DNA of 64,000 bases from Escherichia coli. Its GTDB lineage: Bacteria; Pseudomonadota; Gammaproteobacteria; Enterobacterales; Enterobacteriaceae. The DNA lies in assembly GCF_003018115.1 (NCBI RefSeq), contig NZ_CP027457.1. One strand, 5' to 3'. Shown one piece after another: positions 56,923 through 57,760 of this stretch (positions within the stretch are counted from its first letter, which is position 1; every line of letters begins with the position of its first letter). The position numbers were made by a program, and so were the translations under genes. The notes under the pieces are model-generated. The model was not told where the DNA came from. It made no database searches and saw only the letters and a program-made list of their open reading frames with translations.

Positions 56923-56957
56923 TGTCATGACGGAATAAAATTTCTGAAATTCTTCAC

Positions 56958-57087
56958 ATTTCTGCAAATTGCCTGTAGCCGCAATAATGACGCTGCGTTA
57001 CTTTTTTGATGCCTGAAAAATAACTCCATAACGTTAATCTTCATCGTTCTCTCCCGCAGCTCCGCTGACTCTGCGGGATTTTTTTAT
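56958..57087 (+). ncRNA. Candidate small RNA, repeat unit 1
   Basis: Promoter-like segment to hairpin cccgcagctccgctgactctgcggg + T7; no ORF; 5' end is a guess. Confidence 0.3.
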
Positions 57088-57174
57088 CCCTTAAACCCGG
57101 CCTGATATTTTCTGTCCTCTGCCACCGATATCCCGCAGCCCCTTCCTGTGAATAAAAATTCTGAATTTATTCAC

Positions 57175-57317
57175 ATTTCTGCAAATTACCTGTGGCACTC
57201 ATAATCACCATACGTTACAATTCACCCGCTGATTACAGGCAATAATCAAAACTACTCCTTAAGGTGACTATTCGTTTCTCCCGTCAATATCCAGGTGTAT
57301 TACGGGAGATTTTTTAA
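57175..57317 (+). ncRNA. Candidate small RNA, repeat unit 2
   Basis: Palindrome GTGAATAAAAATTCTGAATTTATTCAC, CATAAT -10-like element, hairpin ctcccgtcaatatccaggtgtattacgggag + T6. Confidence 0.3.
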
Positions 57318-57407
57318 TTCCCCCCTCAGTATCACGGACATTACTGACGCCACTCTGTCGCCAGAGACGAATGTACGGGATAAATAAAAACTCTGATTTT
57401 CTTCACA

Positions 57408-57539
57408 TTTTCCGTCATTCTCCGTGGCAGAGTGCATTCCGGCAGGTTACAGTTTCTTCGGGTCAATAAAAATAAAACGCCAACAGGTTAGTCAACATCG
57501 TTCTCTTCCCGCAGCACGGAGTACTGCGGGATTTTTTTA
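57408..57539 (+). ncRNA. Candidate small RNA, repeat unit 3
   Basis: Degenerate palindrome, hairpin cccgcagcacggagtactgcggg + T7. Confidence 0.3.
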
Positions 57540-57628
57540 TCCCCTTAACCCGGCATGATGCCTTCTGTCCTCTGCCACCGATATCCGGCCCCTCCCTTCC
57601 CGTGAATAAAAATTCTGAGTTTATTCAC

Positions 57629-57760
57629 ATTTCCGCACACTGACTGTAGTGCTCATAATCACGCTGCGTTACAGTTCATCTGCCAGAATAATGAAAAATT
57701 CCTTAAAGTTAATCTTCGTATCTCTTCCCGCAGCCGCCGAGCACTGCGGGATTTTTTTAT
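57629..57760 (+). ncRNA. Candidate small RNA, repeat unit 4
   Basis: Palindrome GTGAATAAAAATTCTGAGTTTATTCAC, CATAAT, hairpin cccgcagccgccgagcactgcggg + T7. Confidence 0.3.

Follow-up and report, generated by a model that had tools for sequence, protein, structure and literature searches.

What directs the transcription of four short, terminator-ended units that stand in tandem in an Escherichia coli prophage? The units occupy positions 56930-57760 (+ strand) of a 64,000-nucleotide stretch of contig NZ_CP027457.1 (RefSeq assembly GCF_003018115.1), hereafter the window. An initial annotation, made from the DNA letters alone, had pointed to an inverted repeat at their heads, with two 9-bp arms around a 9-nucleotide spacer (GTGAATAAA-N9-TTTATTCAC), and had taken it for the operator of a dimeric protein. 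By alignment and profile search the units are homologues of the prophage small RNA (sRNA) PasB, and the element that they share with the rest of the PasB family is a different, asymmetric one: a block of ~30 bp in which AATAAAA is followed by TCTGA-N6-TCACATTT, the N6 being variable. This block is very probably a cis-regulatory element, and the perfect palindrome a version of it specific to one lineage. Its likeness to a binding site of CRP and its fixed distance from the promoter lead us to propose, tentatively, that it serves as an activator site.

Four tandem PasB-like sRNA genes

PasB is an 83-nucleotide, Hfq-dependent sRNA of enteropathogenic E. coli (EPEC) E2348/69, encoded on the minus strand of NC_011601 (1466343-1466261), and its northern probe is AATCCCGCAGTGATCGCGGAGCT (Pearl Mizrahi et al. 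2021, PMC8550237, Table S6). Read as its reverse complement, the probe gives the terminator motif of the window units. In E2348/69 the gene is found within a lambdoid prophage, between the tail genes I and J, and the window array likewise lies in the I-J gap of a lambda-like tail operon, to which it is antisense. In pairwise alignments the RNA parts of the four units share 62-77% identity with PasB and 62-82% among themselves, and a profile search of the window (nhmmer) recovers the four units with E-values of 1e-46 to 1e-50. Because the probe matches the terminator, the location is shared and both alignment and profile search agree, the four units are, on sequence comparison, diverged tandem copies of the PasB gene. 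Each has its own block, promoter and intrinsic terminator, the last being a hairpin followed by a U-run in all four. The putative seed regions upstream of the terminators differ among the units, and the seeds may differ accordingly. Expression and Hfq dependence have been shown for the E2348/69 RNA only, the window units being predicted genes.

The single PasB gene of E2348/69 resembles the window units in its place in the I-J gap, its antisense orientation, its terminator and the conserved region upstream of the terminator, as well as in the upstream block TCTGA-N6-TCACATTT and the spacing of that block to the -10 hexamer. It differs in copy number, the window having four tandem copies that have diverged. 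Unlike units 2 and 4, canonical PasB is not preceded by a perfect palindrome.

Symmetry and conservation upstream of the units

The inverted repeat is exact where it had been placed in units 2 and 4 (Table 1), and in unit 2 its arms reach 10 bp (57147-57175). When the entire window was searched with up to three mismatches, the two perfect copies and the unit 3 copy (three mismatches) were returned, with 0.00 expected from shuffled sequences. Folded as single-stranded DNA the palindrome is weak (-5.7 to -6.9 kcal/mol). Relative to shuffles, units 2 and 4 are far more stable, whereas the corresponding segments of units 1 and 3 are at chance in both arm pairing and folding, so that the label of degenerate palindrome overstated what these two units contain. 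The repeat does sit just upstream of the promoter of a terminator-ended segment, as had been said. The two perfect dyads are not independent: over spacer and promoter, units 2 and 4 share 80-83% identity, from which it appears that the dyads were inherited through one duplicated module.

Homologues give a clearer view of which bases matter. Phage contigs were fetched by the terminator 17-mer only and units were then located in them by profile search, which yielded 131 units, 70 of them distinct. The sequence T[C/A]TGA-N6-TCACA is kept in 68 of the 70, and in the remaining two the whole upstream region has been replaced. The perfect 9+9 dyad is present in 9 of the 53 full-length distinct units, all of the unit-2/unit-4 type; the others pair at 4-7 of the nine arm positions (canonical PasB at five), and every unit of the more diverged arrays pairs at 4-6 (L026 with three units; L107, L046 and L110 with two each). 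The dyad is kept in every recovered copy of the four-unit array (the window, L021, L061 and L072).

Column counts over 52 distinct promoter segments show that AATAAAA, TCTGA, the spacer bases T4 and T6, and TTCACATTT are invariant or nearly so. The 13 columns of TCTGA, TCACA and the adjoining TTT include no variable one, whereas variation affects 51 of the 56 columns downstream and all 13 of those upstream, with p = 2e-10 as a description of the pattern rather than a strict probability, the columns not being phylogenetically independent. Within the N6 between the half-sites, four of six columns vary. The palindrome gives no such signal: its arms and its spacer do not differ (8/18 versus 3/9 variable columns, p = 0.69), the arm states that perfect the dyad are in the minority (G at L1 in 6/52, T at L2 in 23/52, A at R4 in 8/52), and the invariant TCTGA falls inside the supposed spacer. 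Because of these minority arm states, the invariant bases in the spacer and the absence from homologous arrays, the 9-N9-9 dyad is probably not the functional core. The palindrome is missing from canonical PasB and from diverged related arrays, which is the outcome that the initial annotation had named beforehand as refuting an operator. A single DNA-binding factor for all four units, also part of that annotation, is plausible because all share the upstream block; the dyad as the conserved unit that it would recognize is not supported.

Of 5426 complete E. coli genomes, 1729 contain the conserved block, in 2,710 copies altogether; only 101 have a version with the palindrome, and 78 have the whole four-unit array. 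Its distribution spans phages with Shiga toxin (Stx) genes of types 1 and 2 and non-Stx phages, and three sampled genomic occurrences all lie in the I-J gap. A scan of species-representative genomes for the block gave mostly chance matches in A/T-rich genomes, Escherichia albertii alone having a true PasB-like unit.

A CRP-like core and its distance to the promoter

The consensus site of CRP is AAATGTGA-N6-TCACATTT, and at class I promoters it lies upstream of the -35 region, near -61.5 and on the matching face of the helix (PMC2859248). Compared with the shorter form TGTGA-N6-TCACA, the conserved core agrees at nine of ten positions, its right half and flank being perfect; against the full consensus the window sites match 13-14 of the 16 specified positions. 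CRP had been set aside in the initial annotation, yet the invariant TCTGA-N6-TCACATTT is one mismatch from a CRP core. The four unit sites are the only one-mismatch matches to TGTGA-N6-TCACA in the 64 kb, and 22-mer matches number four where 0.35 would be expected. In unit 2 the 22-mer runs over the palindrome's spacer and right arm, and its dyad axis (57167.5) lies 6.5 bp to the right of the palindrome axis (57161). Half-sites and flank that are fixed around a largely free N6 (0/13 versus 4/6 variable columns) are as expected for CRP.

Two -10-like hexamers, termed P1 and P2 in Table 1, follow the block. In P2, of the form TAnnnT, the bases T1, A2 and T6 are kept and the inner positions vary. 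The CRP-like centre lies 48.5 bp upstream of its first base in all four units and in E2348/69 (TAGTGT). Among homologues this spacing holds in 62 of 64, despite RNA lengths of 75-88 nucleotides, and TAnnnT is kept in 66 of 68. A start predicted from TAnnnT agrees with the 5' end reported for PasB (1466343) and with the outermost 5' fragment coordinate (1466344) from RIL-seq, in which interacting RNAs are ligated and sequenced. With starts in the window placed by analogy to the E2348/69 end, the CRP-like site would stand at about -60.5, which fits class I geometry; compiled CRP promoters with sites at -59.5 to -61.5 (among them aldA, tnaC and mdh P1, which with lac P1 are class I) have CRP-to-(-10) spacings of 48-50. 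The P1-type hexamer (TATAAT, AATAAT or CATAAT) lies 16 bp upstream of P2; 28 of 68 homologues have it as an exact TATAAT, and unit 3 and some homologues have lost it. It could serve as an alternative promoter for a longer isoform, or mark the true primary start of an RNA that is later processed. The -35 regions are poor at both candidate promoters. TTCACA taken as a -35 element has no -10 partner at 15-21 bp, and the block read as a minus-strand promoter offers no credible hexamer pair.

Table 1. Positions of the palindromes, CRP-like sites, candidate promoter elements, predicted sRNAs and flanking tail genes in the window
Feature	Position	Strand	Remarks
Palindrome equivalent, unit 1, CGGAATAAA-N9-ATTCTTCAC	56931-56957	none	5/9 complementary; z = +0.75
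Perfect 9-N9-9 palindrome, unit 2, GTGAATAAAAATTCTGAATTTATTCAC	57148-57174	none	DNA fold -6.9 kcal/mol; z = -5.2
Palindrome equivalent, unit 3, ATAAATAAA-N9-TTTCTTCAC	57380-57406	none	6/9 complementary; z = +0.07
Perfect 9-N9-9 palindrome, unit 4, GTGAATAAAAATTCTGAGTTTATTCAC	57602-57628	none	z = -4.1
CRP-like 22-mer, unit 1, ATTTCTGAAATTCTTCACATTT	56940-56961	+	centre 56950.5; 3 mismatches to AAATGTGA-N6-TCACATTT; 6.5 bits
CRP-like 22-mer, unit 2, AATTCTGAATTTATTCACATTT	57157-57178	+	centre 57167.5; 2 mismatches; 5.7 bits
CRP-like 22-mer, unit 3, AACTCTGATTTTCTTCACATTT	57389-57410	+	centre 57399.5; 2 mismatches; 9.2 bits
CRP-like 22-mer, unit 4, AATTCTGAGTTTATTCACATTT	57611-57632	+	centre 57621.5; 2 mismatches; 6.8 bits
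Second -10-like hexamer (P1), unit 1, AATAAT	56983-56988	+	
Second -10-like hexamer (P1), unit 2, CATAAT	57200-57205	+	16 bp upstream of P2
P1 position, unit 3, GTGCAT	57432-57437	+	hexamer lost
Second -10-like hexamer (P1), unit 4, CATAAT	57654-57659	+	
Inferred -10 (P2), unit 1, TACTTT	56999-57004	+	48.5 bp from CRP-like centre
Inferred -10 (P2), unit 2, TACAAT	57216-57221	+	paired by promoter scan with GTGGCA, 57192-57197
Inferred -10 (P2), unit 3, TACAGT	57448-57453	+	conserved position
Inferred -10 (P2), unit 4, TACAGT	57670-57675	+	conserved position
Predicted PasB-like sRNA 1	57011-57085	+	~75 nt; start inferred; intrinsic terminator; 77% identical to E2348/69 PasB
Predicted PasB-like sRNA 2	57228-57315	+	~88 nt; divergent terminator; 62% identical to PasB
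Predicted PasB-like sRNA 3	57460-57538	+	~79 nt; 67% identical to PasB
Predicted PasB-like sRNA 4	57682-57758	+	~77 nt; 76% identical to PasB
Tail tip protein J gene	53154-56849	-	transferred to the window from a 100% identical genome annotated in RefSeq
Tail assembly protein I gene	57763-58344	-	RefSeq annotation of a 100% identical genome

CRP as the candidate activator

The proposal that the conserved asymmetric block is an activator site of PasB-like sRNA promoters, with CRP as the best candidate, is as a whole one that we hold as possible and a little short of probable. In this proposal the palindrome would be a lineage-specific elaboration of the ~30-bp block that precedes every PasB-family gene, the functional core being the A-tract AATAAAA together with TCTGA-N6-TCACATTT, on its own displaced axis. 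A dimeric activator of the host would bind this core and recruit RNA polymerase, through the C-terminal domain of its alpha subunit (alpha-CTD), to a weak promoter with a poor -35 and a TAnnnT -10, the start lying ~60 bp downstream of the core. The best candidate for the activator would be CRP with cyclic AMP (cAMP), working in class I fashion, and the four sRNAs would then be switched on together when glucose is absent. The A-tract upstream of the core might compensate for a weak site by bending or by contact with alpha-CTD. The three substitutions that perfect the dyad in units 2 and 4 would have come from one duplicated module, with no separate function needed to account for them. The more specific claim that the bound factor is CRP, acting as a class I activator, is to be held more loosely still, as a reasonable candidate suggested by the match and its position.

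PasB-like promoters resemble class I CRP promoters in having a CRP-type dyad with 6-bp spacing, located upstream of a weak -35 and centred 48.5 bp from the -10. They are unlike them in the left half-site, which has C for the preferred G, in their low matrix score, and in that the role of CRP is that of a candidate. Scores were taken from a symmetrised matrix built on 107 sites in the CRP chromatin immunoprecipitation sequencing (ChIP-seq) table of enterotoxigenic E. coli (ETEC) H10407 (PMC4287617), and they are low mainly because of C2 in TCTGA and the A/T bases beside the half-sites. The epd site TCTGACTCACATCACA, which has the same unusual half-sites, carries a strong CRP ChIP-seq peak in enteroaggregative E. 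coli (EAEC) 042, and the aldA site TATGAAGCCCTTCACA, with half-sites nearly as in the PasB-like sites, is a functional class I CRP site at -59.5. Because epd is bound and aldA is functional with such similar half-sites, the PasB-like sites would fall within the range of weak but real CRP sites. One further stretch, AGTGCTCATAATCACG at 57648-57663, reaches 10.5 bits on the same matrix, above the conserved sites; it overlaps the CATAAT of unit 4 only, is not conserved in the other units and is probably a chance match.

Expression data exist for the E2348/69 gene. Spot 42 (Spf) is repressed by cAMP-CRP. In EPEC, PasB was the only Pas sRNA higher in overnight static lysogeny broth (LB) than in exponential Dulbecco's modified Eagle medium (DMEM), and in the same data Spf was ~5-fold higher in DMEM. 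The direction seen for PasB, opposite to that of Spot 42, fits activation by CRP weakly, because growth phase and oxygen are not the same in the two conditions either. The prophage sRNA EvrS, for which a putative CRP site has been reported that made no difference in a crp mutant, is a different sRNA from the Q-esterase region and has no bearing on PasB.

Several further observations weigh against CRP or against the assumed start. The matrix gives the four window sites 5.7-9.2 bits and the E2348/69 PasB site 5.3 bits. Among bound sites these values correspond to the 7th-16th percentile, and the window contains 12-89 other 16-mers with scores as high. C at position 2 of TCTGA occurs in ~1% of bound half-sites, CRP strongly preferring G, and the A/T beside the half-sites is the reverse of its T/A preference. 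The invariant A-tract and the invariant spacer bases T4 and T6 are left unexplained by CRP contacts. The CRP ChIP-seq tables of ETEC H10407 and EAEC 042 contain no PasB-like site, a result that is uninformative in that the one 042 I-J gap examined has no PasB. The published PasB start comes from RNA sequencing coverage rather than from mapping of primary 5' ends, and use of the conserved P1 hexamer as the -10 would put the site at -44.5, which is non-canonical. Finally, the family is confined to Escherichia phages, and part of the invariance may reflect recent common ancestry.

Alternative readings of the block

The strongest competitor is that the block is bound by some other host or phage-encoded factor, which might read GAAtaaaaaTTCtGAAnnnnTTCaca, with its alternation of GAA and TTC, or else TTCTGAA together with the A-tract, and that the likeness to CRP is coincidental. 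We consider this unlikely, while granting that it would make sense of the weak matrix scores, of an invariant C that is almost never found in bound half-sites, and of the invariant AATAAAA, T4 and T6, which lie outside the main CRP contacts; in most of the family, moreover, an imperfect inner dyad, GAATAAA...TTTcTTC, has 5-6 of its 7 positions paired. Against it, none of the E. coli consensus sequences with which the block was compared fits better than that of CRP. A phage repressor specific to one immunity type is in turn an unlikely occupant of a block that is spread across one-third of complete E. coli genomes and over Stx1, Stx2 and non-Stx phages that probably differ in immunity.

These comparisons failed for different reasons. 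In direct comparison with consensus sequences, FNR is excluded by the right half-site, which is of the CRP type TCAC and not the FNR type TCAA; sigma-E, with TCTGA as its -10, by the lack of GAACTT at -35; sigma-54, with TGGCAC, by the lack of TTGC at -12; NagC and Mlc by the opposite orientation of the dyad; and MetR, RcsB and direct repeats of the OmpR type by missing defining positions or wrong spacing. ArgR operators consist of two 18-bp ARG boxes (core TGAATwwwwATTCA) whose starts are 21 bp apart. Units 2 and 4 alone have one box-like match, TGAATAAAAATTCT, with the next TGAAT 13 bp away rather than 21, and the match degrades in most homologues. For Cra (FruR), TGAA-N4-TTCA is present, but the central CG, the most informative part of its motif gcTGAAtCGaTTCAgc (PMC5888115), occurs in no variant of the family.

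Somewhat less likely again is that no specific regulator is involved and that the A/T-rich block acts as an intrinsic enhancer, through UP-element-like contact with alpha-CTD or curved DNA, or as a point at which H-NS or Fis nucleates. No part of the array, which has ~42-45% GC and is flanked by DNA of 55-65% GC, is richer in A/T than the block; relative to the TATAAT-family -10 it spans about -64 to -38, the zone of UP elements; and the poor -35 at both candidate promoters could explain why it is conserved. Yet UP elements and sites for nucleoid proteins tolerate exchanges between A and T, whereas here 13 columns are fixed in exact order while neighbouring A/T positions vary, and the best-conserved parts, TCTGA and TCACA, contain G and C.

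The half-sites of typical helix-turn-helix dimers have centres ~10-12 bp apart. That the GTGAATAAA/TTTATTCAC palindrome is itself the operator of a dimeric regulator controlling the units is improbable, for all its exactness far above chance in units 2 and 4 and its retention in the four-unit arrays, given its absence from units 1 and 3, canonical PasB and the diverged arrays (4-6/9), its minority arm states around invariant spacer bases, the single ancestor of both perfect copies, and half-site centres 18 bp apart, with which the arms come to face almost opposite sides of the helix. At most it would supply an additional tier of control in units 2 and 4 alone. As an RNA hairpin on the tail mRNA the palindrome is likewise an unlikely reading, to judge from its weak folding as single-stranded DNA and its lack of conservation in homologues.

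A tandem array in the I-J gap

Stx phages have a single unit at the I-J position, and phage contigs also include arrays of two and three units. A 2026 survey of Pas sRNAs (Zhu, Shabalina and Storz, bioRxiv 10.64898/2026.05.13.724894) reports no tandem pasB genes, the smallest pasB-pasB distance being 28 kb, and tandem arrays of up to four diverged PasB-like genes appear to be undescribed. The RefSeq annotation of a 100% identical genome has nothing in the 913-bp I-J gap. Rfam placed no family on the array at gathering thresholds or at E-values up to 10, where only chance matches were returned, and Tandem Repeats Finder found nothing there, the units being too diverged.

Tandem paralogous sRNA genes that share an upstream regulator site have precedents in OmrA/OmrB with OmpR and PrrF1/PrrF2 with Fur. 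The window genes are likewise adjacent duplicates, each with its own upstream element and terminator; unlike those pairs, they number four, lie on the strand opposite to a phage late operon, and have diverged putative seeds.

Other features of the region and of the window were also noted. A terminator-like hairpin, ACAGGCACCCTCCGGGGTGCCTGT followed by TGTTTTTGGG, lies at 56900-56923 on the minus strand, that of the tail operon, between the array and the start of J. Compensatory changes in its stem among homologues (GGCAC/GTGCC versus GGCAT/ATGCC) suggest that the structure has a function within the late operon. In a prophage of E. coli 042 (NC_017626, 1440127-1440603; L192, 8128-8604) the I-J gap holds a small A/T-rich open reading frame on the opposite strand and no PasB; the junction of I and J looks like a hotspot for phage cargo. 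Elsewhere in the window are RNA features of the core genome that mark the host as E. coli and are unrelated to the array: the RyeA/SdsR pair (20743-20887), a cspA-type thermoregulator leader (4795-5255, minus strand) and an naRNA4/repetitive extragenic palindromic element (42013-42088, minus strand).

Implications for the PasB family

An activator site at an sRNA promoter is of a well-known kind; the one proposed for PasB is previously undescribed. CyaR and McaS are Hfq-dependent sRNAs activated by CRP, and Spot 42 is repressed by it. PasB is a base-pairing sRNA as these are, and its transcription would, like theirs, report cAMP-CRP status. The three are single-copy genes of the core genome whose control by CRP has been shown, whereas the PasB family is prophage cargo for which such control is proposed only.

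A far more speculative extension, to which we attach very little probability, would make the array a cAMP-responsive battery of diverged sRNAs, acting in trans through four seeds and in cis by antisense control of the late mRNA across I and J, with the palindrome as a second operator in units 2 and 4. If true, it would couple the carbon status of the host to the supply of the tail-tip protein J, and the overlapping second operator, serving another factor, would distinguish units 2 and 4 from the other two units.

Striking as it is, the palindrome is incidental and belongs to a single lineage, and the conserved upstream element of the PasB family matters more. PasB is among the most widespread prophage sRNAs of E. 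coli, its upstream block occurring in about one-third of complete genomes, and the control of its transcription is unpublished: the PasB papers (PMC8550237; bioRxiv 10.64898/2026.05.13.724894) describe neither a promoter nor an upstream element, and a full-text literature search for the site sequences returned no paper that contains them. Control by CRP would account for the behaviour that separates PasB from other Pas sRNAs under the conditions published. The CRP-like class I element yields a testable hypothesis, namely that glucose and cAMP may control a phage-borne regulator of host and virulence mRNAs.

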